A DNA stretch of 64,000 bases, taken from the UHGV virus genome UHGV-0179803; one strand, given 5' to 3'. How positions within the stretch are numbered: position 1 is the stretch's first letter; every line of letters starts with the position of its first letter. Shown piece by piece: positions 42,982-63,226 of the stretch. This stretch comes from a virus. The notes beneath the pieces were generated by a model. It was given only the letters and a program-made list of their open reading frames with translations. It did no database searches and had not been told where the DNA came from. Both the position numbers and the translations under genes were made by a program.

Positions 42982-43716
42982 ATGAAGCAAGGTGTAGTGT
43001 GGGCTTTATTCAATGGCTCCGATATTGCTGTCAAACCCTGGGCTGATGCAGGGTATTTGTGCTTCTGCTTCAATGCAGAAGGGGCAGATCACGGGAGCTA
43101 TGCAGAGGTAGTAGAAGAACATCCCAACATTAAGTACATAGATTACTGGATTGACCCGTGGTTCCCACAAGAAACCTTGGGGATGTATCCTGCACCAGAT
43201 TTCATCCTGTCGTTTCCACCATGTACCCACTTAGCGGTATCTGGAGCAGCACATTTCAAGAAAAAATTACAAAAAGATCCGTTGATTCAGGTCAATGCTG
43301 TAAAAGATGCACGTATTGCAGAAACATTGGGTAACATGTATAATTGTCCGTGGCATGTGGAGAACCCTGTTGGGGTTATGTCTAATATGTGGCGTAAACC
43401 AGACTACAAGTTCCATCCGTCTGAGTATGGTGGCTATCTGCCGGAAGATGACCAGAACCCGTGGTTCCCTGACCTGATTAAGCCCAGAGATGCTTATCCG
43501 AAGCTAACCTGTGGATGGTTTGGGAATGGTTTTGTTGTCCCTGAGAAACGACCTGTGCCGCAGATTTGTGATGTAAATGGGTATTCTTTCCAACATACCA
43601 AACTGGGAGGAAAATCTCCTCGTACCAAAATGATCAGAAGCCTGACACCTCGTGGTTGGGCATTAGCCGTGTTTGAAGCCAACGAACCCGTTGTAAGGAG
43701 CAAACTCAATGGTTGA
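42982..43716 (+). CDS. Possible DNA (cytosine-5) methyltransferase-like protein; assignment tentative
   Basis: Ordered motif-like segments: LFNGSD (cf. motif I FxGxG), SFPPCTHLAVSG (cf. motif IV PC), WHVENPVG (cf. motif VI ENV). Short for a C5-MTase (244 aa). Confidence 0.3.
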   Translation: MKQGVVWALFNGSDIAVKPWADAGYLCFCFNAEGADHGSYAEVVEEHPNIKYIDYWIDPWFPQETLGMYPAPDFILSFPPCTHLAVSGAAHFKKKLQKDPLIQVNAVKDARIAETLGNMYNCPWHVENPVGVMSNMWRKPDYKFHPSEYGGYLPEDDQNPWFPDLIKPRDAYPKLTCGWFGNGFVVPEKRPVPQICDVNGYSFQHTKLGGKSPRTKMIRSLTPRGWALAVFEANEPVVRSKLNG

Positions 43717-44380
43717 CTGGAGCAAATATTTCACCTACAGTGACGGTAAACTGTTCTGGGCGTATACCGCAAAAGCCGGAAGAGGCAGGGTTATACATCA
43801 CGCAGGCGAGGAGGCCACAGGTACAGACACAGATGGCTATAGGGTGATAAGTGTGTCAGGTGTTGGACGTGTTAGTAGGCATAGAATAATTTGGGAGATG
43901 CATTACGGGGAGATACCTGAAGGCCTTGTTGTGCGGCACAAGAACGACATAGCAGGCGATGATAGGATAGAGAACTTAGTCCTAGGAACACAGGGAGATA
44001 ATGTACGAGACATGATCTACAGTGACAAATTGAACATTAACAATACCTCAGGGTGTCGAGGTGTATGCTACCATAGGGGTGTAAAAAGATGGATTGCATC
44101 TGCTGGAGACATATATTTAGGATGTTTTAAGACAAAAGAGGATGCAATTACATGCAGAAAGTTATGGGAGGAGGGAAAATTCGTCCCGCAAGAATTAGAT
44201 GTTAGAAATACCAGCGGTGTAACAGGGGTGTTCTATGTGCCAAGCTCTGGAAGGTGGAGAGTTAGAGTACAAAGTGGCAAAAAGAGAAAGAGCTATGGTA
44301 GTTACAACACTTTAGAAGAAGCAAGAGCTGTAAGGGACAGAGTGATGAAAGAGATTGAGGAGTCTAAAGATGGGGAATAA
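43709..44380 (+). CDS. Freestanding HNH homing endonuclease with AP2 DNA-binding repeats
   Basis: HNH_3-like core ..RHRIIWEMHYGEIPEGLVVRHKNDIAGDDRIENLVLGTQGDN.. plus AP2-like repeats ..SGCRGVCYHRGVKRWIASAGDIYLGCFKTKEDA.. and ..SGVTGVFYVPSSGRWRVRV..YGSYNTLEEA.. Confidence 0.7.
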   Translation: MVDWSKYFTYSDGKLFWAYTAKAGRGRVIHHAGEEATGTDTDGYRVISVSGVGRVSRHRIIWEMHYGEIPEGLVVRHKNDIAGDDRIENLVLGTQGDNVRDMIYSDKLNINNTSGCRGVCYHRGVKRWIASAGDIYLGCFKTKEDAITCRKLWEEGKFVPQELDVRNTSGVTGVFYVPSSGRWRVRVQSGKKRKSYGSYNTLEEARAVRDRVMKEIEESKDGE

Positions 44381-50813: not shown

Positions 50814-51187
50814 AAGTTAAAGGCACAGAACACATAGAACGCGCTGTGGAGGTTGAACTGGATGCCCGTGAAGTGGGCGAACTCATCGACAACACAGCAG
50901 AAGAAGTGCTCCTGCATTCGATTCAGTGCCGTGCAATGCAACGTTTCTATGAACGGGTTGCAGGTTTTGAAGGCTCTTTTTGTGTGCGGCAGCGGCAGGG
51001 AGATAATGGTATACTTGTGTACCAACTGTGGAAAATTGATGCTGACTGGGACTACCACAATGATGTTGGCATCGATGAAAAAATAAAAGACTTGACAACA
51101 GAGGAGGTTGTGGAGTATATTTACCTCCGTGGTTGGGTAGAGAACGCAATATTCCAGTTAAGAATTCCAGTTGGAGAAGCCAAATGA
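50810..51187 (+). CDS. Hypothetical protein (125 aa)
   Basis: ATG overlaps the upstream stop (ATGA); RBS GAGGAGATAGAGG. Confidence 0.45.
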   Translation: MKVKGTEHIERAVEVELDAREVGELIDNTAEEVLLHSIQCRAMQRFYERVAGFEGSFCVRQRQGDNGILVYQLWKIDADWDYHNDVGIDEKIKDLTTEEVVEYIYLRGWVENAIFQLRIPVGEAK

Positions 51188-51441
51188 AAATTATTATCAA
51201 AGAAGACAAACTGATTTCTGATGAAACTTTCCGTGATTGCACTGCTGGTGCAGTCTATGAAGCGAAAATGTGTGAAAATCCGCTAATTGCACTCTGCGAA
51301 CAACTCGGTATCCACCTTGACGAAGAAGATATTCGTTACGCCGAAGAAGGTCTGCAATGTCTCCTCTTCCACGACGATAAAGGAGAGGCTGTGTATTGCA
51401 CTTTCAAAGACGTGGTTATTGTAAAACCTGAACATTATTGA
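51184..51441 (+). CDS. Hypothetical small protein (85 aa)
   Basis: ATG overlaps the upstream stop; RBS GGAG. Confidence 0.45.
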   Translation: MKIIIKEDKLISDETFRDCTAGAVYEAKMCENPLIALCEQLGIHLDEEDIRYAEEGLQCLLFHDDKGEAVYCTFKDVVIVKPEHY

Positions 51442-51450
51442 TATTAACTA

Positions 51451-51479
51451 TTGACAAGCGTGGCGGGGTTATGTATAAT
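51451..51479 (+). promoter_or_regulatory. Consensus sigma70 promoter (TTGACA, 17 bp spacer, TATAAT)
   Basis: Exact -35 TTGACA (51451-51456) and -10 TATAAT (51474-51479); RBS AAGAGGAG and ATG at 51508 downstream. Confidence 0.7.
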
Positions 51480-51507
51480 AGCCCCGTTAACAAAGAGGAG
51501 AGCCAGA

Positions 51508-51765
51508 ATGAAAGCACAACGTGTCAAAGCTAAAGTAAAACGTTTCTGCCTTGAAGAAGACTGCGCATTTTGTGATTGTGAACTAGGTGTCATCTATGAT
51601 GCTATCATCAATCTGGATGACGAAGATGATCCTCAACTGGGCAAAGAATGTGTCCTGATCGACGGGCATGGTGATGATGTTTACTGCACAACAGCAGAGC
51701 TGGAAATCGTAGAAGAAGGTGAAGTCTACGAAACTACTTACACAGAACTTTTCCGTAGCTTTTAA
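51508..51765 (+). CDS. Small acidic Cys-containing protein (85 aa)
   Basis: RBS AAGAGGAG. Motif CLEEDCAFCDC and an acidic C-terminal half. Confidence 0.5.
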   Translation: MKAQRVKAKVKRFCLEEDCAFCDCELGVIYDAIINLDDEDDPQLGKECVLIDGHGDDVYCTTAELEIVEEGEVYETTYTELFRSF

Positions 51766-51777
51766 AGGTGCCACAAG

Positions 51778-52176
51778 ATGAAAAAACTTTGGGATTTAGA
51801 CCTCTTCGATCTTACTGGGTTTGACGATTCATTCGGTGTTATCACAGTCCGTGATGGTGTGGCTGTGCTTAACTTGAATGGTCAGCAATTCCTGCTTGAA
51901 GATATGGCTTTGGTACGTGCAGATGACAATCCAAAAGCTGATCTGTTTGACCGTTTACAGCCGTTCAATTTCCGTAAAGGTACAAAAGCAGACCTTGATT
52001 GTAAGGTCAACGTGATGGTCACACAACAAGGTCCGTACCTGGTAATCTGCGCAGTAAAGAAAATGTGCAGCCTGAATGATCACGACCCACGGGCTAAAAA
52101 CGATGTTATCATCCTCAAAGTGGGTGATGCGATGGAAGATTTGATGAATGCAACTGGAGGTACTGGTGAGGACTGA
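51778..52176 (+). CDS. Hypothetical protein (132 aa)
   Basis: RBS AAAGGTG. Confidence 0.45.
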   Translation: MKKLWDLDLFDLTGFDDSFGVITVRDGVAVLNLNGQQFLLEDMALVRADDNPKADLFDRLQPFNFRKGTKADLDCKVNVMVTQQGPYLVICAVKKMCSLNDHDPRAKNDVIILKVGDAMEDLMNATGGTGED

Positions 52177-52468
52177 TTACGAAAATATGGATCCTGAAGA
52201 CTTCCTGAAGATCTTACGCCGCGTAATGAACTCACAAAACGAGATCACTTTGGAAGATGAGTTACTTGCCTCTTACCTCGAAGAGGCTGGCGATGAGCTT
52301 CCAATCTATGCGGGTCCGGGGGGCATGTATGCTTTGTGGCGCAAGATAGACATTCTTGAAACAGGGAAAGATATGATTATCTGGCACCTGATCAACAATG
52401 TTGGGGTCCCTGCATTTGACAAAGCGGTTGCAGAATTTTATCAACTTGACGAAGGCTACCCAGTATGA
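52166..52468 (+). CDS. Hypothetical protein (start uncertain: GTG 52166 or ATG 52187)
   Basis: ORF in operon; GTG is 5 nt after GGAGG. Confidence 0.35.
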   Translation: MRTDYENMDPEDFLKILRRVMNSQNEITLEDELLASYLEEAGDELPIYAGPGGMYALWRKIDILETGKDMIIWHLINNVGVPAFDKAVAEFYQLDEGYPV

Positions 52469-52725
52469 AACGCTTAACAGACCATGTATTCAAAGAAGGT
52501 GACAAAATCGTATTCGATGAGTTAGGTCCTGGCGCTGAAGCATGTGAAAACCTGACAGTAGGTAAAGAGTATGAAGTTGTAACTCCTACTTACAAACACA
52601 CACAGCTGTTCGGTATTGATGCTGAAATCTTACTACCAGGTATGTTTGAAATCCGTGATGATGCAGGTGATCTGATCGTAGGCGTACTTGGTGACGGCCT
52701 GTGGGGTGTTGCACGCCCAGTGTGA
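52465..52725 (+). CDS. Hypothetical small protein (86 aa)
   Basis: Overlapping stop/start. Confidence 0.45.
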   Translation: MKRLTDHVFKEGDKIVFDELGPGAEACENLTVGKEYEVVTPTYKHTQLFGIDAEILLPGMFEIRDDAGDLIVGVLGDGLWGVARPV

Positions 52726-52745
52726 TACTGTATAAACAATCAGTA

Positions 52746-52774
52746 TTGTTATTCCTGTAGGGAAGTGCTATAAT
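52746..52774 (+). promoter_or_regulatory. Sigma70-like promoter (TTGTTA, 17 bp spacer, TATAAT), with -10 inside an inverted repeat
   Basis: The TATAAT sits in the loop of GGGAAGTGC-TATAATGG-TACTTCCC. Confidence 0.45.
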
Positions 52775-52821
52775 GGTACTTCCCTTTAATACGTTGTTCA
52801 ACTAATCGGAGATTTCCTATA

Positions 52822-53217
52822 ATGGAACAAATGAACGATCAAGAAACGGTGGCAATGAACGTGCCAAACGAAGAACAACCTCAAGAAGCTGTATTCTTAG
52901 GGTTATCACGAGATCAGGTAGCTTTGCTGGCTGTTCTCTCTTCCTTCTTCTCCAACCTTACCGAAGTCATGAAGCAACAAGATGCTGATCGACTCTTCCA
53001 GGCACTGGTTGAAGAACCAAATTACAGACGCTTAGATTATGCTTTAGGTTGGGTAGCTCGCAACCGGGATGATATCCTTGCTTTGGTGGGAACCTGCAAC
53101 TTTGCACTGGGCCTACTGGCTAAAGTACAGGATACCTTAATCAAAGTCGGCTTCCAGGCTGGTGATCAGCAACAAGAAGCAGAGCAACCACAACAAACTG
53201 AAGGAGACAAACAATGA
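52822..53217 (+). CDS. Hypothetical protein (131 aa), Gln/Glu-rich termini
   Basis: ORF downstream of the promoter. Confidence 0.45.
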   Translation: MEQMNDQETVAMNVPNEEQPQEAVFLGLSRDQVALLAVLSSFFSNLTEVMKQQDADRLFQALVEEPNYRRLDYALGWVARNRDDILALVGTCNFALGLLAKVQDTLIKVGFQAGDQQQEAEQPQQTEGDKQ

Positions 53218-54467
53218 GTGTTGTACAAGAATTCAAAAACCCAATGAATCCCCGTGAAACTATTCTCATGGCTCACGGTATCATCAAACGGGTAAGTATT
53301 AAACCTATCAAAGGGGCTGATCCTGAAACAGGCATCAAAACTACTGTGTGGCAAGGTAAGAAAATAGAATCCTCACACACTATTGCTCTTCTAATCGCTG
53401 AAGTGGATGAGAACGACAAACTGCTCCAGGGCGGTGAAGAGATGTGGGTTAGCATGGGCGATAAACTCCTGAAACCTGGTCATCAGGATTCTGTTAGCGT
53501 TAAGATTAATGACAAATGGGAAACTGTAGTACCTGGCTGGATTGTTAACATCCCGCTTAAATCCAACGAGTACAACGGTAAAACCTATTACAAAGGATCT
53601 CTGGCTAAAATTGTTGTGTTAGGGGCTGGTGAAGTACCTGCAAGTGCTCCTAAAGCGCAGCAGAAAGGCCAACAACAGCCTAAACATGGTCAGGGTAAGC
53701 AACCACAAGGCAACCAACAAAAACCTGCTCAGAAAGGGGCTAATGACGTTTTACGCATTTATGGTACTATCACCGCCATTGATGGTAAATCCGTAACCGT
53801 TGATGATCAGAAGATTGGTGTTGGTGTGATGGTTGTCAACAACCCAAATCAGTTGAAAGAGCTGGTTGTAGGTGGTCGTGTTGCAGCTGTATGCGATACA
53901 GCGGGTAATGTCCTGAGTGGTTTTAAAGCATATCCACCACTGGAAAACAAAACACCTCGTAAGTCAACCTACGACCCTATTGGTGTGAGCACTGGTCATG
54001 CTCTTAATGCAATGCAAATTCTTCTGGATCGTGGATTGAATCCGGGGAGTACGACAGATTTAGGTATCGCAATGCAACTCCACACCTTGACAATTGACCT
54101 TAAAATGGAGTATGCTAAGGCAACAGGGAATGAAGAGGATGCTGTTGGGGCAACTGTAGGTAATGCTGTACTTAATGCATGTCGCCGTGTTAACATCGAC
54201 AACCTACAGAATCTTGATTGTCTGTTCAAAGATATCAAAGCTGAAGCCAATAACGTTCTGGTAAATCTGGCTGAACCTTTGTATCAGTGGATCAAAACTG
54301 GCAGCACAACCGCTGTTTCTAAACAGGGAACCAAACAGGAACCTGTGCCGGAACAGAAGCCAGAACCGCAACCGGAGCCTCAGCAGAATACTGTAGATGC
54401 TCCACCAGTAGAAGAGGAGGAACCTGATCCTACAGAGTGGGCCTTTGATGAAGACATACCCTTCTGA
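53214..54467 (+). CDS. ssb: Single-stranded DNA-binding protein (SSB-like) with long Gln/Pro-rich linker and acidic tip
   Basis: C-terminus ..EWAFDEDIPF matches the conserved SSB tail (..DDDIPF). Low-complexity linker QQKGQQQPKHGQGKQPQGNQQKP. The N-terminal region is compatible with an OB fold but was not verified. Confidence 0.6.
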   Translation: MSVVQEFKNPMNPRETILMAHGIIKRVSIKPIKGADPETGIKTTVWQGKKIESSHTIALLIAEVDENDKLLQGGEEMWVSMGDKLLKPGHQDSVSVKINDKWETVVPGWIVNIPLKSNEYNGKTYYKGSLAKIVVLGAGEVPASAPKAQQKGQQQPKHGQGKQPQGNQQKPAQKGANDVLRIYGTITAIDGKSVTVDDQKIGVGVMVVNNPNQLKELVVGGRVAAVCDTAGNVLSGFKAYPPLENKTPRKSTYDPIGVSTGHALNAMQILLDRGLNPGSTTDLGIAMQLHTLTIDLKMEYAKATGNEEDAVGATVGNAVLNACRRVNIDNLQNLDCLFKDIKAEANNVLVNLAEPLYQWIKTGSTTAVSKQGTKQEPVPEQKPEPQPEPQQNTVDAPPVEEEEPDPTEWAFDEDIPF

Positions 54468-54531
54468 TAAGTCATTGATTTATAGAGGATTTTAGCCATG
54501 TTCAACGAAGAAAACTGGGATGTGTAACGAT

Positions 54532-54558
54532 AAGGCCACCTTCGGGTGGCCTTTTTTA
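54532..54558 (+). terminator. Rho-independent terminator (AAGGCCACC-TTCG-GGTGGCCTT + T6)
   Basis: Perfect stem with UUCG loop and TTTTTT, right after ssb. Confidence 0.75.
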
Positions 54559-54587
54559 TTGACAAGAGAAAAATTTTAGGCTATAAT
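54559..54587 (+). promoter_or_regulatory. Consensus sigma70 promoter (TTGACA, 17 bp spacer, TATAAT)
   Basis: Exact consensus hexamers, directly abutting the upstream terminator. Confidence 0.7.
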
Positions 54588-54889
54588 GCGACCACTAAGA
54601 GAAAGATAAGGACTACCACTAGGATTAAGCAAGACATTATCAAAGCACGCAAACAGTTGACAGCGGAAGAAGCTCTTGATCGGGGTTATCGTTTTGCACA
54701 GACTTATAAAGCTATTCGTGAAGCACTGACTGATATGGTCAATGGGCAGCGGGAAGTGATGAAAAACAATATCAGCATTAAAATTTCTGAGTACACAATT
54801 TGCAGGTTAGAAAGTTTAGGCATCACTGTTCGTGATTTTGCTTTCAAAGTCTTGTTCCGTTTGGAACGTTTGTGAGAGGGAGGTATTCC

Positions 54890-55528
54890 ATGAAAAAGTT
54901 TATTGGCAAGGTAGTGGCTGTAGATGTGGACCTTACTTTTGTTGATTCTGGTCGTGCATGGTTAGACTGGTGTCAGAAAAGGACTGGTCTACCTATTAAC
55001 GTTTTTCTGCCGCCACAGAATCCACAGATGCGTTTCTATTATGACCTGACAAAATACTTCCCTGAATGCTACAAGAAAGATTTGAGGCTTTTCTGGAAGT
55101 TGGGTGGCATCTATGACAACCTTGAGCCGTTGCCTGGTGCTGTTGACACTATCAAGTGGTTGCATGATGAAGGAGCCATCATCTGGTTTTTAACTGGGTC
55201 TTTAAGCCACAAACAACATGTTAATAAATTCGATTTCATTAACAAGTGGTGTCCTTTCCTGGAGATAAAATGGGGAGGCCACGGAAACAGGAACGAAAAC
55301 GAACTGATCCGTGTGAAAGATATGTACGAGAAGGTAAATTTCGAGTGGGACGTGCTCATAGATGATCGCATAGAGGCATTTCCTCCTCGGAAAGATTCTC
55401 ACGCCGGAAGCACGATTCTGATGGATACTCCTTACGATCAGAGTTGTACGGATTGGACACGTGTTGACGCTGTTGTTAACGGTTGGGGTGATAAAATGAA
55501 AGAGCACCTTGAATGGGCTTTAGCTTGA
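54890..55528 (+). CDS. HAD-superfamily hydrolase, probable 5'(3')-deoxyribonucleotidase
   Basis: RBS GAGGGAGG. HAD motif I VAVDVDLTF (DxDxT) and motif IV VLIDDRIE. Confidence 0.55.
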   Translation: MKKFIGKVVAVDVDLTFVDSGRAWLDWCQKRTGLPINVFLPPQNPQMRFYYDLTKYFPECYKKDLRLFWKLGGIYDNLEPLPGAVDTIKWLHDEGAIIWFLTGSLSHKQHVNKFDFINKWCPFLEIKWGGHGNRNENELIRVKDMYEKVNFEWDVLIDDRIEAFPPRKDSHAGSTILMDTPYDQSCTDWTRVDAVVNGWGDKMKEHLEWALA

Positions 55529-55557
55529 TGCCTTCCCACAAAGCAGAGGTACACCAC

Positions 55558-55986
55558 ATGTGCAAATGTAAATCTTACAATAAGAAAGTGAAGGGCGCTA
55601 AACACCCAAATGTTATTCTGGAAGTTCCTAAACGTCTTCGTACAAAACGGTTAGATGGGACGGAACAACGCACTATTGCAGTTGATAAATGCATGGCTAA
55701 ACGGCTGGTTAGTTTGTGGGCAGCAGGTTTGCAGACTATGAACTGTTGCTGTGGTCACAACAAGTTTATGCCTACAATAATCATTCCAGAAGATGCTTGT
55801 CTGGAAGATTATTTCAAGATTCTTGATCGCTATGAGCAAACTTGTGTTGCACAGTGGCGTAAGTTCAAAGGTGAGTTTAGTCTGTTCTACTACATTAAGG
55901 TGGGTTCAGCTATACTTTGTATCAGTGAGCCTCCAAAAGTTCATGGCCCAGATTTTTATATAGCCACCAAAGTGTTCAATCAATAA
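55558..55986 (+). CDS. Cys-rich hypothetical protein (142 aa)
   Basis: ATG after AGAGGT. MCKCKSYNKK.. and NCCCGHNKF.. Cys clusters suggest metal binding. Confidence 0.45.
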   Translation: MCKCKSYNKKVKGAKHPNVILEVPKRLRTKRLDGTEQRTIAVDKCMAKRLVSLWAAGLQTMNCCCGHNKFMPTIIIPEDACLEDYFKILDRYEQTCVAQWRKFKGEFSLFYYIKVGSAILCISEPPKVHGPDFYIATKVFNQ

Positions 55987-56003
55987 GTTAAGATATTAAG
56001 TTC

Positions 56004-56261
56004 ATGAAAAGAAAACTAATTAAGCGCAATAAGGCATTTTTAAGTAAGTGTATTAAGGACGCTAAGGGCTGGCCTCTATACCTCTTCCTTTATGACAGGT
56101 ATTCTAAAATGTCGGTTATGGAAATGCGGTACTACAAGAAGCTCAGAAAGGAATCATATACGAAACAGGGCCGCATTAACGGACTTTACCTGATGTGGTA
56201 CGGTAAAGAACCGTCCAGAATCTGTGTTGGGTTAAAGGGGCGTATACGGAACAAAAATTAA
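56004..56261 (+). CDS. Hypothetical basic protein (85 aa)
   Basis: Lys/Arg-rich ORF. Confidence 0.45.
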   Translation: MKRKLIKRNKAFLSKCIKDAKGWPLYLFLYDRYSKMSVMEMRYYKKLRKESYTKQGRINGLYLMWYGKEPSRICVGLKGRIRNKN

Positions 56262-56280
56262 TATTTTGCAACTTTACCTC

Positions 56281-56309
56281 TTGACAACACCAACAAAAAA
56301 GAGTACATT
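56281..56309 (+). promoter_or_regulatory. Sigma70-like promoter (TTGACA, 17 bp spacer, TACATT) overlapping a terminator hairpin
   Basis: -35 exact. The hairpin GGCCAACA-AAGAT-TGTTGGCC + T-tract at 56313-56343 begins right after the -10. Confidence 0.5.
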
Positions 56310-56357
56310 AAAGGCCAACAAAGATTGTTGGCCTTTTTATTTTCGGAGAGACATATC

Positions 56358-56861
56358 ATGGCACTTAGTCTGAAACACGAATTTGGCGGTCTTGTTAACA
56401 GAGAACTTTTCGGTATTGACTGGTGTGTAGAGAAGTTTACTGGTTATCAAGACAAGGAAGAGGCTTACGTTACGCTGTCTGTACAAATTTACACTACAAG
56501 AATCACTATCCACCAGGGTGATGGAAATGTAACTCTTGACGAAATGTATGCCAAATACGATCTTATCCGTGATATGATCGAGCGCTGGATGTTTGCTCTG
56601 GATAACAACATCAAATGTAGTGATCGTATCTGGTTAGACAACTCTCACGCCAAAGGGCACATGCACGGGAATTGCACTTTCGAGGTCTGTGTTGACGGCG
56701 ACAGTAGTGATGACACTTTCACTTTAGCTGATTGTCAAAAACGGCTGTATTTTTCTCCTTACCAAATAGACCAAGTAAAATTACTGCATAAAGAACTTTG
56801 CAACCTTCTTAAAGCAATCAAGTATTGCAAAACTCATGACGTTTATGGGGGTGCATTATGA
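56358..56861 (+). CDS. Hypothetical protein (167 aa)
   Basis: ATG after GGAGAG. Confidence 0.5.
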   Translation: MALSLKHEFGGLVNRELFGIDWCVEKFTGYQDKEEAYVTLSVQIYTTRITIHQGDGNVTLDEMYAKYDLIRDMIERWMFALDNNIKCSDRIWLDNSHAKGHMHGNCTFEVCVDGDSSDDTFTLADCQKRLYFSPYQIDQVKLLHKELCNLLKAIKYCKTHDVYGGAL

Positions 56862-57313
56862 TTTTTGGTAGTGACGGTGGCAAATGGTACGGTGATGACT
56901 ACTACGGAATCAGCTACCACATAGAACTGAACAAAAAGCTGCCTTGTGTGTTTGAACTGTGCATTAAAAAGGCAGAACGTGTTGTTCGCCTGCACAATGA
57001 TCATTTTGCAGACTTCCTGATAAAAATCGAAAGACTGCAAGACTGTTTGTGTGATTTTTTACAAGCAGTAGATAACGGTGAGAAAAGTTACGGCAGGGTT
57101 GATCTCGACAGCAGTGATGAATTTTTCAAAATGCTGGCGCGTTGTTGCTGGCATGTCGGGATGGAAGGGGCTTGCTATCCAGAGTTTTGTATCTCTGATT
57201 GCTACCGCATCAATCATTTTACTTCTATCGAGTTTTTAAAAGACCTCGAAAACGAGTTAAAGGTTGTGTTAGACTACCTGCACAAACACGCAGCAGAGTA
57301 CGGAGATCGTTAA
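56858..57313 (+). CDS. Hypothetical protein (151 aa)
   Basis: Overlapping stop/start. Confidence 0.45.
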   Translation: MIFGSDGGKWYGDDYYGISYHIELNKKLPCVFELCIKKAERVVRLHNDHFADFLIKIERLQDCLCDFLQAVDNGEKSYGRVDLDSSDEFFKMLARCCWHVGMEGACYPEFCISDCYRINHFTSIEFLKDLENELKVVLDYLHKHAAEYGDR

Positions 57314-57334
57314 GCTAAGTAGAAGAGGGGCACT

Positions 57335-57796
57335 ATGATTATCGGTACTGTAAATGGGGATTTAATCTCTATCTTTAAAAGCGGGGCTGGTCACCTGATC
57401 CACGGTTGCAACTGCTTCCACACAATGGGTGCAGGCATAGCAAGGCAGATTGCCAAAGAGTTTCCTCAAGCGTTGGAGACTGATAGGATGACTGCTTACG
57501 GTGATCCAGACAAGTTGGGCACGCTCTCTTGTTGGGAGCATTTTGCCAAGAACAGGATTGTATACGGGATTAACATGTATACTCAATTCCGACCAGGGCC
57601 TAATGCTGATTACTCTTCAATCATGAATGGTTTTGAGCAAGTCAATGAGGTATTCGAAGGTATGTCGTTACCGTTCTACATCCCTAAGATTGGGTGCGGT
57701 ATAGGAGGTCTTATGTGGGAGCATGTAGAGAATATCATCAACCTCACGACTCCTGATATAAAAGTGATCGTAGTGGAATACTGCAAAAAAGGTTGA
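57335..57796 (+). CDS. Macro-domain protein (ADP-ribose binding or hydrolase-like)
   Basis: RBS GAAGAGGGG. Segments ..GAGHLIHGCNCFHTMGAGIARQIAKEF.. and ..IPKIGCGIGGLMWE.. follow the macro-domain layout (N-x-N/A-N followed by a Gly-rich loop, later a second Gly-rich loop). Confidence 0.55.
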   Translation: MIIGTVNGDLISIFKSGAGHLIHGCNCFHTMGAGIARQIAKEFPQALETDRMTAYGDPDKLGTLSCWEHFAKNRIVYGINMYTQFRPGPNADYSSIMNGFEQVNEVFEGMSLPFYIPKIGCGIGGLMWEHVENIINLTTPDIKVIVVEYCKKG

Positions 57797-57820
57797 CACC
57801 GGAAAATTATGGTGTATAAT
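57793..57820 (+). promoter_or_regulatory. Sigma70 promoter (TTGACA, 16 bp spacer, TATAAT)
   Basis: Exact hexamers; -35 overlaps the stop codon of the macro-domain gene. Confidence 0.6.
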
Positions 57821-57853
57821 GCAAACACATAAACCAACAGAGAGCGACATGTT

Positions 57854-58045
57854 ATGGTAATTTTTAATCGAGATGGTATTATTGTCCAACAGCACCCGTT
57901 CCTCGAATACTATCAGGTTGAGCAATGGAGCTACGGTGATTGCAGCCACACTTACGGTCAAGGCTGGGGGTATCATGTAGTTTTTGAATCAACTGACCTT
58001 AATGAAGTAAAACAGAAAGTTTTAGAACTCCTTAACAGCAAGTAA
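57854..58045 (+). CDS. Hypothetical small protein (63 aa)
   Basis: ORF after the promoter. Confidence 0.4.
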   Translation: MVIFNRDGIIVQQHPFLEYYQVEQWSYGDCSHTYGQGWGYHVVFESTDLNEVKQKVLELLNSK

Positions 58046-58071
58046 GTATTACCGCACCAGTTAAAAATTGG

Positions 58072-58100
58072 TTGACAACAGGTGTGGAATCTGGTACAGT
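58072..58100 (+). promoter_or_regulatory. Sigma70 promoter (TTGACA, 17 bp spacer, TACAGT)
   Basis: Exact -35 and a reasonable -10; AAGGAG RBS and ATG at 58133 downstream. Confidence 0.55.
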
Positions 58101-58132
58101 ACATCCTATACAAAAGAGAAGGAGCACACACT

Positions 58133-58360
58133 ATGTTGTATCGAGTTAAAGTTGCAGCGGATGTTCAGGGTCCGTGGGCTGAGTGGGCAGGCTGGTATTT
58201 ACTTGCTCCAATGGAGGGTTGTACTGATATTAAGTACAATGCTTGCCTCTACAACGAAGAGGAACTTGAAGAGGAACTCTTCATTGCAGATGGTATAGAG
58301 CACGGCCTGTTTGAAGTAGAGCCAGCTTTCGACTCTATACCGGGTTATTATTCTTATTGA
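58133..58360 (+). CDS. Hypothetical small acidic protein (75 aa)
   Basis: ATG after AAGGAG. Confidence 0.45.
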   Translation: MLYRVKVAADVQGPWAEWAGWYLLAPMEGCTDIKYNACLYNEEELEEELFIADGIEHGLFEVEPAFDSIPGYYSY

Positions 58361-58371
58361 GGGGACGAAAA

Positions 58372-58590
58372 ATGAGCATTCAAGAACATGCAGCACATAT
58401 GTGCCATATGATCACAACTCAGTACCCTCAGCAAATGGCATCAGACTTACGTCTGATCGAGATCCATAGCCGCTTTGCCAATATTGTAGAGGATCCTGTT
58501 TATTACTCTGGTGTACACGGTGAACGTGCATTTGATGCCGCTTGCAACGATTTTGTAGACTGGGAAGATGCACTTTGCTACCAGAGTTAA
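58372..58590 (+). CDS. Hypothetical small protein (72 aa)
   Basis: ATG after GAGGGG. Confidence 0.45.
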   Translation: MSIQEHAAHMCHMITTQYPQQMASDLRLIEIHSRFANIVEDPVYYSGVHGERAFDAACNDFVDWEDALCYQS

Positions 58591-58611
58591 GATGGTTGAG
58601 GAGGTTCTCCG

Positions 58612-58770
58612 ATGGAAGTTTTAGGTTTATCAGTAATGCTCTGTGTTTTTGTGGTATTTTGTATTAGCTTTATGCCACTATCAACAGCTAACAAGGCGTT
58701 CTTCATCACGCTGATTCTGCTATTTATTATCGGCGGCACTATGTATGAAGCTGGAATTATCTTTCACTAG
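58612..58770 (+). CDS. Small two-helix membrane protein (52 aa)
   Basis: Hand-translated: MEVLGLSVMLCVFVVFCISFMPLSTANKAFFITLILLFIIGGTMYEAGIIFH. RBS GAGGAGG. Confidence 0.4.
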   Translation: MEVLGLSVMLCVFVVFCISFMPLSTANKAFFITLILLFIIGGTMYEAGIIFH

Positions 58771-58781
58771 GAGGACGTACA

Positions 58782-58976
58782 ATGGGTGATTTACAGAAAA
58801 TCTTATTTACTGTCCTGCTCCTTGTCGGTATGTTTGCGGCAGTAGGCTTTGTGGCTATTAGTGCTGCACACTACGCAGACTTTCCTGCATGGGTACGTGC
58901 TTCGTATTCAGCTATTATGTTGGGGGGTTTGTGCGGTTTCTTAAAATATATAGGACGTGAGGTGCCTGAAAAATGA
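58782..58976 (+). CDS. Small membrane protein (64 aa)
   Basis: RBS AGGAGG. Two hydrophobic segments (ILFTVLLLVGMFAAVGFVAI and AIMLGGLCGFL). Confidence 0.45.
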   Translation: MGDLQKILFTVLLLVGMFAAVGFVAISAAHYADFPAWVRASYSAIMLGGLCGFLKYIGREVPEK

Positions 58977-59401
58977 TCTACCCTGTACCTAAACTAATTC
59001 CGGTATATGACAACGATTCTCGCTTTCAGGTAATGATTGCAGGTATCCTTGTCACTGGTAAAATCGATAGCTATGTGTTCAATGGTGAACGTTTTAAAGA
59101 ATACTCTATTGAATGGGATGGCTATGACTATAACGTCTACTTCGATGAAAACGGGGAGATGTACTTCGAAGAAGTAGAAATGTTGTTAGGTGTTGCAGGT
59201 ATCATCAAACCTAAGGATGTAGAATTTGCTGAAGGGGAATGCGATGACTGCGGTGACTATTGCGTCTGCGATATCCACTTACCTTCAGGGGAAACTATCT
59301 ATTTTGAAACGCATTTCGGTGAAACGAACTTCCCTAATGATTGGGAAGAGTTTTTCGAGATTGTGGAAAAAGAAAGGGAAGTGTTAAGAAGCCGTCGATA
59401 A
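58973..59401 (+). CDS. Hypothetical acidic protein (142 aa)
   Basis: Overlapping stop/start. Confidence 0.45.
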   Translation: MIYPVPKLIPVYDNDSRFQVMIAGILVTGKIDSYVFNGERFKEYSIEWDGYDYNVYFDENGEMYFEEVEMLLGVAGIIKPKDVEFAEGECDDCGDYCVCDIHLPSGETIYFETHFGETNFPNDWEEFFEIVEKEREVLRSRR

Positions 59402-59432
59402 ACCCAGTGTAATAATTTTCACTTATTTGCTA

Positions 59433-59461
59433 TTGACAACTGTGTGGGAGAGTGTTATACT
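59433..59461 (+). promoter_or_regulatory. Sigma70 promoter (TTGACA, 17 bp spacer, TATACT)
   Basis: Exact -35, near-consensus -10; RBS AAGGAGAG and ATG at 59491 downstream. Confidence 0.6.
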
Positions 59462-59490
59462 CTCCCCATCTTAAAAAGAAGGAGAGAGTT

Positions 59491-59685
59491 ATGGCAACAG
59501 TACATCTTATGGCTATCAAACGTCACAATACTTTGTATGGCCCGATTTATGAAACTGTTCTCGGCAATCTGTATATCATCAATGGGACTAGCTTCAGCAA
59601 AATTGACATTCACCACATCGAAGCGTTTCGTGTAGCAGAGCCAGAGTTAGGTTGCTGGTTCCTTCCTGTAGAATGCAATTTATGA
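59491..59685 (+). CDS. Hypothetical small protein (64 aa)
   Basis: ATG after AAGGAGAG. Confidence 0.45.
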   Translation: MATVHLMAIKRHNTLYGPIYETVLGNLYIINGTSFSKIDIHHIEAFRVAEPELGCWFLPVECNL

Positions 59686-59693
59686 GGTGCAGC

Positions 59694-59906
59694 ATGGCTA
59701 CTGCAACATGTGTATCTACGCAGCATGACAAATGGGAACTCTTCGAAGAGTATGAGGTCATCGGTGAGCCAAATGAATTTACTATACTGGTAAAAGCCTG
59801 TGATGGTGAAACATGGTGGTTCCATAAGAGCTGTGATTACCCTGGTTACCATTTTGCACGTACTTCAACTGGCAAATACATTTACTTACTGGTGAACGAG
59901 GACTGA
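59694..59906 (+). CDS. Hypothetical small protein (70 aa)
   Basis: ATG after GAGGTG. Confidence 0.4.
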   Translation: MATATCVSTQHDKWELFEEYEVIGEPNEFTILVKACDGETWWFHKSCDYPGYHFARTSTGKYIYLLVNED

Positions 59907-59907
59907 T

Positions 59908-60252
59908 ATGAAAAACCGTACACATCCGCTCTATCTTCGAGAACGTAATAGTATTGCTATGGTACTGTGCGATATCTTCAATGTTTCAGATCCGTACGAT
60001 ACTCACAATATGTGGGAGACAGCACGCATCCTGTTCCCAACACCAGTGATTGTAGCCATCTCAAAGAATGGCTTGGTGAAAAGAGCATGGGATAAGTTTG
60101 GGCAGTCTTACGTCTGGGCTGATCAACTGGGGTGCTGGTTTGAAGAAAGAAACCCTGTTAGCCTGAACAATGAACGTATGCGGGGAATTGATATCATCAC
60201 GGGCAAAAACATTCGCCTGAAAGGCGAGATTGTTTTCTGGCTTCCACAATAA
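59908..60252 (+). CDS. Hypothetical protein (114 aa)
   Basis: ORF in operon. Confidence 0.45.
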   Translation: MKNRTHPLYLRERNSIAMVLCDIFNVSDPYDTHNMWETARILFPTPVIVAISKNGLVKRAWDKFGQSYVWADQLGCWFEERNPVSLNNERMRGIDIITGKNIRLKGEIVFWLPQ

Positions 60253-60264
60253 CAGGAGAGATCA

Positions 60265-60606
60265 ATGAAGAATCAAACAGTAACAATGCAATGGGTAGAT
60301 GTTGATGGCGTGGAGAACATGCCAATCGGTGTATATTTCGTATGTATGCGGGACTGTAATGGTCTGCAACAATATGGTGTATGCGAAGTTGTTATGGCTG
60401 GGCAGGGCAAATATGCACATAAAGTTGGCGTGATCAGTGGTCAATTTTATTTTGAATTCCCACCAATCGTAGCATACATGGTTATCCCAGACTATGTGCC
60501 GATTCAGGACGGAAAACGCCGTTGCCCACACTGTGGTAGCACTGATATCGGTATGGCGCGGGACGATTTATTCTGCTTCTGCTGCCGCCGTTTCCTGGTG
60601 GAATAA
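60265..60606 (+). CDS. Hypothetical protein with C-terminal zinc-ribbon-like Cys cluster
   Basis: ..RRCPHCGSTDIGMARDDLFCFCCRRF.. (CxxC ... CxxC). Confidence 0.45.
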   Translation: MKNQTVTMQWVDVDGVENMPIGVYFVCMRDCNGLQQYGVCEVVMAGQGKYAHKVGVISGQFYFEFPPIVAYMVIPDYVPIQDGKRRCPHCGSTDIGMARDDLFCFCCRRFLVE

Positions 60607-60616
60607 GGAGTGTACT

Positions 60617-60811
60617 ATGTTCGAGCTTAAATCTTGCACAATCGTAGCACCAGGGGATCGTATCCGTATCCCAGGCCGTCACGAAATCCTACAGGTTAAA
60701 AGCATCGAGTCTGTAGGTAACCGTGTTCTCCTGTTCAAATTTGAAAATGGACACCAGGTGTACATGAGAATGAGAAGCAAAGTGTACATTGACAGGGGTG
60801 CTAAAGAATGA
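60617..60811 (+). CDS. Hypothetical small protein (64 aa)
   Basis: ATG after AAGGAG. Confidence 0.45.
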   Translation: MFELKSCTIVAPGDRIRIPGRHEILQVKSIESVGNRVLLFKFENGHQVYMRMRSKVYIDRGAKE

Positions 60812-61134
60812 ATGAAGTATGGGAAATCTGTGTAGACGTAGCAGGAATCACGCTTATAGGTGCTCTGGTTATTGCTCTGGCGCTGGTAGGATACAAGATG
60901 GCACTTCTGCCTTTCCTGGAAGCATTCAGCCTGTGTCATTGCTGGCGTAGAGCATATGGACCACAACCTGTAAAAGACTGGTTCACTTTGTACCGTATTG
61001 CACTATCTTACACGTTTGATCATTCACGCTTAAACTGCATTGAAAGCTATCATGCTGATGGTTGGTGGTGGGTAGGATTATTCAGATGGGAGGTGACAGA
61101 GGTAACTCCGAAACGAATGCTTAAGAAAAATTGA
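60808..61134 (+). CDS. Small membrane protein (108 aa)
   Basis: Hydrophobic N-terminus VAGITLIGALVIALALVGY. Confidence 0.45.
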   Translation: MNEVWEICVDVAGITLIGALVIALALVGYKMALLPFLEAFSLCHCWRRAYGPQPVKDWFTLYRIALSYTFDHSRLNCIESYHADGWWWVGLFRWEVTEVTPKRMLKKN

Positions 61135-61715
61135 TTTTAGAATTATAAAAGTTTTAGATGACAAGGGGAAATCTGTAATAGATTTTCCCTTATTTATCAG
61201 ATATTTGCAGATATTTGAAAATCATTAGAAACTTAGGTAATTAGGAGCGTACGAAAATGGATTTTTTAAAAGCATAAGCAATCATTTAGCAAATTAGCCA
61301 AATAGATTTTAGCCTATTGCTATTGTGTATGCATGTATTTGCATATGCCTTGCACATATCCCCACACACCTCTTCCCACATTCCCACACAGTTCTCGGTT
61401 GACCCGCCAATCTCCCCTCCACAACTCTCCCAGTAATTTCCTTAAGTACTCGATCTGTTTTTCAAAATCGAAATCGGATTCTGAAAATCTCGACAGCTTT
61501 TCTCCTCGGTTCTCGATAGGTTTTTTATTTTCGATTTTGGATTCTGGATCTCGGTCTGGTTCTGGCTAGGCCTGCGCCTGAGGAACGAAAGCACTTTTTT
61601 ATTTTTGAAAGTGGATTTTGAATTTCTATATAGAAAAAATTTACCCCCTACCATTTTTGGTAGATAGTCACGGTACGTAATTAGCCTGCTAACTAAATTT
61701 TAGATAGTTTCATGA

Positions 61716-61908
61716 GTGATTATCACCGTTACTATAAATTGCCGTAACTATAAATCACCGTGCGTTACTATTTTAATTTCACCATGCAACTATAAATCAC
61801 GGGCCGTTATTATTTATATAGAAAACTATTACTAACCGTGCGTTATTACCTCAATTTGCTTAGGTTACTATTAATCACCGTAAGTAACTATTTTTTAAAT
61901 GATAATCA
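61716..61908. repeat. AT-rich iteron block: ACTATAAAT and TCACCGT(G/A)(C/A)GTTACTATT repeats, flanked by TGATTATCA ... TGATAATCA
   Basis: ACTATAAAT at 61731, 61747, 61789. TCACCGT at 61723, 61755, 61875. AACCGTGCGTTA at 61835. Mutually reverse-complementary 9-mers at 61716-61724 and 61900-61908. Confidence 0.6.
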
Positions 61909-61926
61909 TTCTCAAAATATATTGCG

Positions 61927-62215
61927 TGCATCCCCGGTGATTGTCTCCCGGCCCCTGGTGCCCCGGCTTGATTATATAATAACAGATCCGGCCCCCATGT
62001 CAACAGCTTTTTTAGAAAAATATTAGTTACAACATCCTGGCGCCACCTGGCAGGGCCATCATGACCATGATCCGGTCCGGCGCTTGCGCCCTGGTCCATC
62101 CTCCGCACATTAGTTACAGCATTCCAACGACCGATCCCCGATAGTCTGCAACCTGGCGGGGCCGCCTGGTCCACTGGACCGCCTCCCCTGGTCCGGTGGG
62201 GAGTCCGGCTTGCAA
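61927..62215. repeat. GC-rich island with clustered CCTGG-containing hairpin-like repeats
   Basis: CCTGG occurs about 7 times in one orientation within about 290 bp. Repeated ATTAGTTACA(A/G)CAT at about 62022 and 62110. Near-palindromes such as GGTCCACTGGACC. GC content far above the window average. Confidence 0.55.
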
Positions 62216-62351
62216 TTCAAAATGTGATCTGTGTCAACCTTTCACCATGTAGCTATTGATCAGGTTACGGCCTAGTGTATTCTATAGGTGAAGGGAAACA
62301 AAGGGGAAACGGAAAGCAAAACACCAGGCCGCAAGGCAGGAGGAAAATAAA

Positions 62352-62528
62352 ATGAAAGGCATGGTTAACAACAACAACGTAAAAGAGAGGGAAATTATTG
62401 TTAATGGTCGTGAGATTGACAATAAACGCCGGAAAGCTATGCGTGATGCCCTGGTCAACTGGTTGGATTATGAAAAAATGATGGTAATGGCAGCGGGTGC
62501 CGCAGCTGGTGAATTTAACCACAGATAA
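62352..62528 (+). CDS. Hypothetical small protein (58 aa)
   Basis: Hand-translated: MKGMVNNNNVKEREIIVNGREIDNKRRKAMRDALVNWLDYEKMMVMAAGAAAGEFNHR. RBS AGGAGG 7 nt upstream. Confidence 0.4.
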   Translation: MKGMVNNNNVKEREIIVNGREIDNKRRKAMRDALVNWLDYEKMMVMAAGAAAGEFNHR

Positions 62529-62747
62529 CCACAGGGGGGCAAAGGTGTTAGCTTATAATCTTCCAGGCCGTCGCCGTACGGTTGCCGACCAGGTAACGGC
62601 AAAGGCAGACGTAACAATCAACAACGGGCAGGGCCTTTACAAGTTTAAACGGGGGAACAGCTATACGATCCAGTTTCTTAACCGTTGTGCTTTAACACCT
62701 GGTCAGATCAACCATTGGTTTAAAGCTAAAAAATTTTAAAAAATTAG

Positions 62748-62776
62748 TTGACACCAGAAAGAAATAAAGTATTATA
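62748..62776 (+). promoter_or_regulatory. Sigma70-like promoter (TTGACA, 16-17 bp spacer, TATTAT/ATTATA)
   Basis: Exact -35, AT-rich -10; RBS AAGGAG and ATG at 62825 downstream. Confidence 0.45.
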
Positions 62777-62824
62777 GATAGTGAAAGCAGTACACAAGGT
62801 TAACAAAATATAAGGAGTAACATC

Positions 62825-63226
62825 ATGAGCGCTTTTAACACTGATTTCGATTTCTCTGGTCTGGAAGAAGTTCGCGATCTTCGTAACTGCCGCCGCGAAA
62901 ACGGTTTTTATAAATCTCTGGACCTGGTGGCACTGGACCACAAAATGGACCTGGAAGAAGTAGCAACGATTCGTTTCTACCAGTCACCGCGCGGTAACAC
63001 TGTTTACTGTGTAGTATGGGTACATGAAGCAGGGCACGAATTTTATGCCACTGCTGGCGGGAAAGCTGGTGGCTATGGTTACGATAAAGAGGAGGCCGCA
63101 TTACGGGAAGCTATCGAGGCGATGGGTGTAAAAGCTGGCGATTATGCTCACCCTGAAAAATTTTTAATCCAGCTTGCTCGCTACTTCGGATATGAAAAAG
63201 CTAAAGTGATTGAAGCACACGCATAA
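62825..63226 (+). CDS. Hypothetical protein (133 aa)
   Basis: RBS AAGGAG; ORF after the promoter. Confidence 0.5.
   Translation: MSAFNTDFDFSGLEEVRDLRNCRRENGFYKSLDLVALDHKMDLEEVATIRFYQSPRGNTVYCVVWVHEAGHEFYATAGGKAGGYGYDKEEAALREAIEAMGVKAGDYAHPEKFLIQLARYFGYEKAKVIEAHA

Follow-up and report, generated by a model that had tools for sequence, protein, structure and literature searches.

The window that we analyzed is a stretch of 64,000 nucleotides from the viral genome UHGV-0179803, and the gene with which we are concerned lies on its plus strand at positions 57335–57796. This open reading frame (ORF) is intact, begins with ATG, and encodes 153 amino acids (aa) at exactly the coordinates given in an earlier note made from the sequence alone, and a ribosome-binding site, GAGGGG, is located 5 nt 5' of the start. 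Since the homologues of the protein open with the same Met-Ile-Ile N-terminus, that ATG is further supported as the start codon. The product is a macrodomain of the ALC1/TARG1-like class belonging to the T4 Tk.4/AdfM family, and the best explanation that we can offer—a reasonably probable one, drawn by analogy with characterized relatives—is that it would act as an ADP-ribosylglycohydrolase stripping from single-stranded phage DNA the thymidine-linked ADP-ribose (ADPr) added by DarT2. We are much more confident in the general assignment, as a macrodomain ADP-ribose hydrolase, than in the DarT2-type role. The gene and the stretches of its sequence that bear on these assignments are the following:

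57335..57796, plus strand: stand-alone macrodomain gene of 153 aa, T4 Tk.4/AdfM family, predicted Gln-type ADP-ribosylglycohydrolase of the ALC1/TARG1 class (ORF, Pfam, PHROG 335, identity with T4 Tk.4, AlphaFold2, Foldseek, PADLOC).
57401..57442, plus strand: codons 23–36, H-G-C-N-C-F-H-T-M-G-A-G-I-A, comprising loop 1 with N26 and the first Gly-rich ADP-ribose-binding loop (alignment, conservation).
57572..57586, plus strand: codons 80–84, N-M-Y-T-Q, with Q84 aligned to the catalytic residues Lys84 of TARG1, Lys80 of DarG, and Gln85 of SCO6735 (profile-to-PDB alignments, alignment A2).
57683..57709, plus strand: codons 117–125, P-K-I-G-C-G-I-G-G, the second Gly-rich, diphosphate-binding loop (alignment, conservation).

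The hallmarks of a macrodomain that the earlier note had recognized were borne out both by profile searches and by structure prediction. The protein matched the Pfam profile Macro (PF01661) over its entire length (profile positions 1–118 of 118) with 25.4 bits and an expectation value (E) of 1.5e-5, the gathering cut-off being 22 bits, and matched PHROG 335 with an E of 1.7e-60. A search of the PDB with the single sequence returned Poa1p, BT1257, the macrodomain of Mtb DarG, SCO6735, and TARG1, the best match being the yeast Poa1p (E 2.6e-6); while a family profile built from 51 homologues gave, against the same database, E values of 1.5e-16 for BT1257, 1.2e-15 for SCO6735, 9e-14 for TARG1, 1e-12 for Poa1p, 5e-12 for Mtb DarG, 4e-10 for Taq DarG, and 3e-3 for nsp3. 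The same alignment, when supplied to AlphaFold2, produced a model with a predicted local distance difference test (pLDDT) score of 94.6 and a predicted template-modeling (pTM) score of 0.89, which model has the three-layer alpha/beta/alpha macro fold. With Foldseek, that model was matched in the PDB at a probability of 1.00 to TARG1, DarG, Poa1p, the Thermosipho DarTG, BT1257, and SCO6735, the template-modeling (TM) scores against solved macrodomains being 0.6–0.8 in general and 0.7–0.8 for TARG1, DarG, Poa1p, BT1257, and SCO6735; TARG1 headed the list (E 3e-9, TM 0.75–0.82). The order of relatives obtained by Foldseek agreed with that of the profile-to-PDB comparison in placing the ALC1/TARG1-like class ahead: TARG1, DarG, SCO6735, BT1257, and Poa1p were the closest in sequence and structure, before the MacroD, PARG, and viral nsP3 types. 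Furthermore, both of the Gly-rich ADP-ribose-binding loops (31-MGAGIA-36 and 119-IGCGIGG-125) are present in the alignment, invariant or near-invariant among the 51 homologues. Neither of the two outcomes that the earlier note had named as refuting it, a missing macro fold or missing Gly-rich loops, was thus obtained.

As judged by sequence similarity, the protein belongs to a known macrodomain family, that of T4 Tk.4/AdfM, which family is very widespread in phages: by tblastn, relatives were found in 2,753 of 50,697 phage records, or ~5% of the GenBank phage genomes. The nearest named relatives are those of the rV5-like Vequintavirinae SophiaRose (79% identity) and Bas59 EduardKellenberger (78%), followed by that of the T4-like GEC-3S (67%); the Tk.4 proteins of the T-even phages, whose gene lies beside vs and tk, are 40–44% identical (44% for ime09 Tk.4), with T4 Tk.4 itself aligning at 40% identity and an E of 1e-45 (residues 1–149 versus 1–151). 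The exact protein was absent from a collection of 5.8 billion sequences, in which the best match was 96% identical. Because the window has only patchy nucleotide matches to GenBank phages, at ~80% identity, we consider its source to be an uncultivated relative of the rV5-like phages, and the gene a new member, from such a phage, of a family whose function has recently been assigned in T4. We also observed that the macro proteins of rV5-like phages resemble that of the Krischvirus GEC-3S (67%) more than the GEC-3S-type proteins resemble T4 Tk.4 (~40%), which suggests that the gene has been exchanged between phages of unrelated lineages. In addition, several records within MG065654–MG065677, deposited as 'Campylobacter phage' (C5, C15, C2, A12a, A13b, and others), match the window in the same manner as do the rV5-like phages of E. 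coli; those records are unannotated and of ~135–141 kb (one of 75.6 kb), and their host labels look doubtful.

The function of the family was revealed in T4 by means of a transposon library grown on a host carrying DarTG2, a bacterial system that ADP-ribosylates phage DNA: in that experiment (HIDEN-SEQ) tk.4 was the single significant hit, and a clean tk.4 knockout became DarTG2-sensitive, upon which finding the gene was named adfM, for anti-DarT factor Macrodomain (bioRxiv 10.1101/2025.11.20.689424, a preprint of November 2025). The authors of that preprint inferred from these results an enzymatic removal of ADP-ribose from DNA. In a second phage, the chimallivirus PhiKZ, the macrodomain gp104, likewise called AdfM, de-ADP-ribosylated thymidine-linked ADPr (T-ADPr) oligonucleotides in vitro and rescued cells from DarT2 toxicity, and its knockout had phenotypes (PMC13309987, Cell Reports 2026). 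The sensitization of the T4 knockout and the activity of the PhiKZ protein on T-ADPr DNA together lend weight to the suggestion of the earlier note that this gene serves counter-defence by removing ADP-ribose marks. The degree of novelty that the same note implied was, for its part, too high: many phage records already carry the family under the name of macro domain or phosphatase.

Those public labels are themselves heterogeneous, comprising hypothetical protein, 'phosphatase', 'macro domain protein', 'Poa1p-like', and 'O-acetyl-ADP-ribose deacetylase', and some of them would correspond to an enzyme acting on small metabolites derived from nicotinamide adenine dinucleotide, either an ADP-ribose-1''-phosphate (Appr-1''-p) phosphatase resembling Poa1p or an O-acetyl-ADP-ribose deacetylase. 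T4 Tk.4 is annotated as 'phosphatase; A1pp motif', PHROG 335 is labelled 'phosphatase', and the Joint Genome Institute (JGI) designates relatives as 'O-acetyl-ADP-ribose deacetylase'; in addition, the best match of the single sequence in the PDB is to Poa1p, with the identical motif H23-x-C-N-C ... G-x-G-I-A. These labels, however, were transferred by homology, that of 'phosphatase' deriving from the resemblance to Poa1p, whereas the family profile ranks BT1257, SCO6735, and TARG1 above Poa1p; moreover, neither a tRNA-splicing (Tpt1) nor a sirtuin context was identified in the window, and, in genetic terms, sensitivity to DarTG2 is the sole phenotype known in the family (bioRxiv 10.1101/2025.11.20.689424). 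We therefore regard a small-molecule enzyme as distinctly unlikely here. Labels such as 'phosphatase' or 'hypothetical protein' could be revised on ~2,750 phage records.

The residues of the active site were assigned by alignment with the solved relatives. Within codons 23–36, which align with H24/N27 of SCO6735 and with the MGAGIA of TARG1, the residues H23, G24, N26, C27, M31, G34, and A36 are invariant in all 51 homologues, and N26 corresponds by this alignment to the Asn responsible for positioning the catalytic residue. The motif N80-x-Y82-T83-Q84, with N80 and Y82 in 51 of the 51 homologues and Q84 in 50 of them, aligns with I-T83-K84 of TARG1 and with N-M-I-G-Q85 of SCO6735. In the second Gly-rich loop, which corresponds to IGCGLDR in TARG1 and to IGCGLAGG in SCO6735 and BT1257, P117, G120, G122, and G125 are invariant among the same homologues; and G124 occupies the position of the catalytic Asp125 of TARG1, where the family has only Gly or Ala and never Asp. 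Q84, N26, H23, and the Gly loops, which are 98–100% conserved, thus align with Gln85, Asn27, His24, and Gly126/128 of SCO6735, and the protein fits the pattern of that enzyme: a Gln plus a conserved Asn, with no Lys/Asp dyad. The TARG1 sequence in alignment A2 matches the sequence of PDB entry 4J5R over chain residues 9–144. The equivalences for DarG were taken from a structure comparison (PMC9411070) together with the alignments of TARG1, SCO6735, and BT1257; in a PDB sequence search performed with the C-terminal half of the protein only, DarG was not among the matches.

SCO6735 has neither the Lys84/Asp125 dyad of TARG1 nor the Lys80 of DarG, and it nevertheless cleaves thymidine-linked ADPr-DNA efficiently and protects cells from DarT; of its mutants, Q85A was inactive, N27S nearly so, and G128E impaired (PMC9411070). 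From the alignment, the whole Tk.4/AdfM(T4) family carries Gln at the catalytic position (50 of the 51 homologues) in place of the Lys of DarG and TARG1; and therefore its chemistry should follow that of SCO6735. A Gln-type site is compatible with the anti-DarT2 function, and it suggests a chemistry resembling that of SCO6735 rather than that of DarG. The assignment also singles out Q84 and N26 as precise targets for mutation.

Macrodomains in general bind ADP-ribose derivatives, and on that basis the second suggestion of the earlier note, that the protein might interfere with ADP-ribose-derived immune signals (Thoeris gcADPR, His-ADPR) by binding or degrading them, may be considered here, together with the related idea of a noncatalytic ADP-ribose binder. 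The degradation of such signals found no support in our analysis. The literature that we consulted reports no macrodomain of the ALC1/TARG1-like class that cleaves or sequesters them; the equivalents of the catalytic Gln and Asn of SCO6735 are 98–100% conserved, a conservation that speaks in favor of an enzyme whose targets are linkages at ribose C1''; and the phenotype in T4 is specific to DarTG2 (bioRxiv 10.1101/2025.11.20.689424). Either of these, interference with immune signals or noncatalytic binding, would accordingly be a most improbable role for this gene.

If the removal of ADP-ribose from DNA thymidines is taken as the function, the protein would be akin to the macrodomain half of DarG and would constitute, in effect, an 'orphan antitoxin'. 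Transcription would probably be early, by the RNA polymerase of the host, with the gene in third place within a short unit starting near 56.3 kb. A host DarT2-type toxin would attach ADP-ribose to thymidines in the single-stranded phage DNA, thus blocking replication; the macro protein would then use its two Gly-rich loops (MGAGIA 31–36 and IGCGIGG 119–125) to bind that ADP-ribose, position the distal ribose by means of Gln84, itself held by Asn26, and hydrolyze the thymine-ribose bond to yield free ADP-ribose and a restored base. As the protein has no DarT-binding domain, the neutralization of the toxin should be mainly catalytic.

Several considerations weigh against this proposal. The T4 evidence is only genetic and available as a preprint, and the protein studied there shares just 40% identity with the one encoded here; a search of the literature available to us for tests of a Vequintavirinae (rV5-like) macrodomain against DarTG2 found none. 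The substrate specificity of the ALC1/TARG1 class is broad, with TARG1 and SCO6735 acting also on ADPr linked to Glu in proteins (PMC9411070), and Poa1p, of the same class, is an Appr-1''-p phosphatase. Finally, two features described as specific to SCO6735, a Val/Ile at position 25 and an extended mobile loop, do not recur: Val25, whose backbone atom holds the proposed catalytic water (PMC9411070), is replaced in the macro family by the invariant Gly24; and the longer, Lys-rich mobile loop that has been linked to DNA processivity in SCO6735 (PMC9411070) is absent, the loop following Q84 being 5–6 residues shorter than in SCO6735 and BT1257.

The surroundings of the gene contain three further features:

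56281..56336, plus strand: promoter-like site TTGACA-17-TACATT (10/12) at 56281–56309, abutting a strong terminator-like hairpin with a 12-bp stem and a T run at 56310–56336 (sequence).
56358..57313, plus strand: two paralogous ORFans, of 167 and 151 aa, that immediately precede the macro gene, the stop of the first overlapping the start of the second in the sequence ATGA (PUR/Whirly-like predicted fold).
57793..57820, plus strand: perfect sigma-70 promoter TTGACA-16-TATAAT, the -35 hexamer of which holds the TGA stop of the macro gene.

The window is laid out with tail and structural genes at 0–23 kb, a minus-strand block, replication genes at 33–50 kb, and small plus-strand ORFs from 50.5 kb to the end. 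The replication module includes, at 43709–44380 (plus strand), between a methyltransferase and the primase/helicase region, a homing-endonuclease-like gene with HNH_3 and AP2 domains. Near-consensus sigma-70 promoters (at least 11 of 12 positions) number 14 on the plus strand versus ~1 expected from shuffled sequences, and half of the 14 fall within 50–64 kb; those at 51451, 54559, and 57793 match the consensus perfectly. The last of these would drive the next small gene (57854–58045), and no terminator was seen between that gene and the macro gene. The earlier note had described the locus as one of promoter-driven small early genes, of which description the promoter-rich run of small genes was confirmed, whereas the early timing follows solely from the type of promoter: because those promoters are of the host type, the small genes would be expected to be expressed early.

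Upstream, the element at 56281–56336 would probably mark the end of one transcription unit and the start of that of the macro gene. A transcript initiated at the 56281 promoter-like site would include the 5' arm of that hairpin only in part, and the element could therefore terminate the transcripts arriving from upstream yet let its own pass. Thereafter follow three tightly packed genes—orf167 (56358–56861), orf151 (56858–57313), and the macro gene—which may form a single early transcription unit, the upstream pair being apparently cotranscribed with the macro gene.

Compared with SophiaRose (MW748998, L002 in our set), the stretch 51184–63226 of the window is broadly collinear, with protein identities of 36–84%. 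The block at 54.5–57.3 kb, however, has been replaced relative to SophiaRose, which phage has an endonuclease VII gene there, and two genes that precede the macro gene in SophiaRose lie downstream of it in the window, as a local transposition. At 54872–55528 (plus strand), a gene encodes a protein of 212–218 aa matching the Pfam family NT5C (deoxy-pyrimidine 5'-nucleotidase) with 31 bits against a cut-off of 24.8, and this gene is kept at the same position in the metagenomic contigs L005, L008, and L010.

The two ORFans orf167 and orf151 are paralogues, with an identity of 24–28%. They have no match in Pfam, PHROG, or PADLOC and none by tblastn among the GenBank phages, their homologues occurring only on metagenomic contigs of 128–147 kb. 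The AlphaFold2 model of orf167 (pLDDT 86.9) contains a four-strand-plus-helix topology repeated twice, which arrangement, as modeled, would be a PUR/Whirly-like fold, a fold that binds single-stranded nucleic acids, and not that of an ADP-ribosyltransferase (ART). The possibility that the pair constituted such a transferase, with the macro protein as a self-antidote, was discarded on the grounds of this predicted fold and of the absence of any Pfam, PHROG, or PADLOC match. Three related contigs (L005, L006, and L010) keep the trio of pair and macro gene; but in another relative, L008/L009 (ENA ERZ28580259 scaffold_36, 128.8 kb), the pair, of 167 and 136 aa, has neither the macro gene nor the block of small genes after it at this position. 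The linkage between pair and macro gene is consequently not obligatory, which circumstance weakens the idea of an obligate module, and the macro gene would appear to behave as part of a variable cassette.

The gene context also bears on a different substrate for the same kind of enzyme. The ADP-ribose that the protein erases might be attached to protein or RNA and not to DNA thymidines. It might thereby reverse a host ART defence directed at proteins or mRNA (CmdTAC-like adenine-ADPr, for instance, or uracil-linked or phosphate-end ADPr), or else trim the modifications made by an ART of the phage's own. T4, which carries the orthologue, encodes ARTs of its own, namely Alt, ModA, and ModB. TARG1 acts on the phosphate-end ADPr of RNA and DNA, and it has been proposed that counter-defences of the DarTG type extend to other nucleic-acid ARTs. 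Because TARG1 and SCO6735, the closest solved relatives, are multi-substrate enzymes that also hydrolyze protein-linked ADPr (PMC9411070), we accord this alternative some probability, albeit a rather low one. Among the 30 ORFs of the 64-kb window scanned with Pfam, the whole genome being of roughly 130–150 kb, neither an ART nor a NADAR (AdfN-like) domain was found, and the apparently cotranscribed genes upstream have a predicted PUR/Whirly-like and not an ART fold. In addition, SCO6735 was reported in one results section to lack activity toward 5'-phosphate ADPr and 2'-OH RNA ADPr, and the only phenotype reported for the T4 orthologue is that against DarTG2 (bioRxiv 10.1101/2025.11.20.689424).

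In a further reading, which we regard as unlikely, the Tk.4-type macrodomains would constitute a mechanistically distinct anti-DarT branch of the Gln type, with the water- or substrate-assisted catalysis of SCO6735 and apart from the Lys-type enzymes DarG and PhiKZ AdfM, perhaps acting on a broader set of substrates (T-ADPr DNA, ADPr on uracil in RNA, ADPr on Glu in proteins). In the uncultivated rV5-like clade of this phage, the PUR-like pair, presumed to bind single-stranded nucleic acids, might then serve as a shield of the single-stranded DNA on which DarT acts or as a recruiter of the eraser to it. The reading that we prefer is still that of an ADP-ribosylglycohydrolase directed at the DarT2 mark. 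The gene was also compared with the known systems.

The closest of these systems is T4 Tk.4. The two proteins are similar in size (153 versus 155 aa), share PHROG 335, are stand-alone single domains, and are encoded in regions of small nonstructural genes; the motifs HGCNCFHTMG(A/S)G(I/V)A, N-x-YTQ, and IG(C/A)GIG are common to both. The differences reside in the lineage of the phages, Straboviridae versus rV5-like, in the identity of only 40%, and in the neighbours, which in T4 are arranged as vs / tk.4 / tk.3 and in the window as the PUR-like pair / macro / a small ORF. The PhiKZ AdfM is likewise a stand-alone phage macrodomain that counters DarTG2, and it has the same fold class, but it pertains to a different subfamily, with 22% identity, a pairwise E of 1e-4, and an hhalign profile E of 4.8e-10; moreover, its expression is late, the phage nucleus imports it, and its active site is of the Lys type (N23/K78), whereas that of the present protein is of the Gln type. 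Phage macrodomains with this presumed job thus fall into two separate lineages, and the protein encoded here is situated in that of T4 Tk.4.

DarG, for its part, agrees with the phage protein in macrodomain class and in fold (Foldseek E 1e-8, TM ~0.75, against the Taq structures 5M31/5M3E and the Mtb structure 5M3I), and the substrate is presumed to be the same. The PADLOC model of DarG (PDLC02990) matched with an E of 2.7e-13 in the macro part only, and the NCBIfam model NF048014 with an E of 1.3e-12 and 47.6 bits, where the equivalog cut-off is 250, over model positions 4–139 of 338. Because the DarG models are matched over only the first ~140 of their ~330 positions, we consider the C-terminal DarT-binding domain to be absent. 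In addition, the catalytic Lys80 of DarG is Gln84 here, and no adjacent darT was detected by Pfam, PHROG, or PADLOC among the neighbours of the macro gene. The designation of the protein as a DarG was thus rejected: the match is below the NF048014 cut-off, and a DarT-binding domain, a darT neighbour, and the catalytic Lys are all missing. The architecture is instead that of an orphan antitoxin, as has been described for AdfN, the NADAR counterpart.

Among the cellular macrodomains, SCO6735 of Streptomyces coelicolor (PDB 5E3B) and BT1257 of Bacteroides (2FG1) rank first in the PDB by profile and share the Gln-type active site and the IGCGxxGG loop, but they are only ~22–24% identical to the phage protein and have a longer mobile loop, with Lys89 and Lys94. 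The human TARG1/OARD1 (4J5R/4J5S) has the MGAGIA and IGCG loops in common with our protein, whereas its Lys84/Asp125 dyad corresponds to Gln84/Gly124 here. The yeast Poa1p (6LFQ–6LFU) shares the H23-x-CNC motif, but is a larger eukaryotic Appr-1''-p phosphatase with insertions; of its residues H23 and S30, the first is kept in the phage protein and the second is Thr30. Finally, regarding the macro genes of the rV5-like Vequintavirinae, the early region that surrounds them is broadly collinear between SophiaRose and the window, while the genes directly upstream differ.

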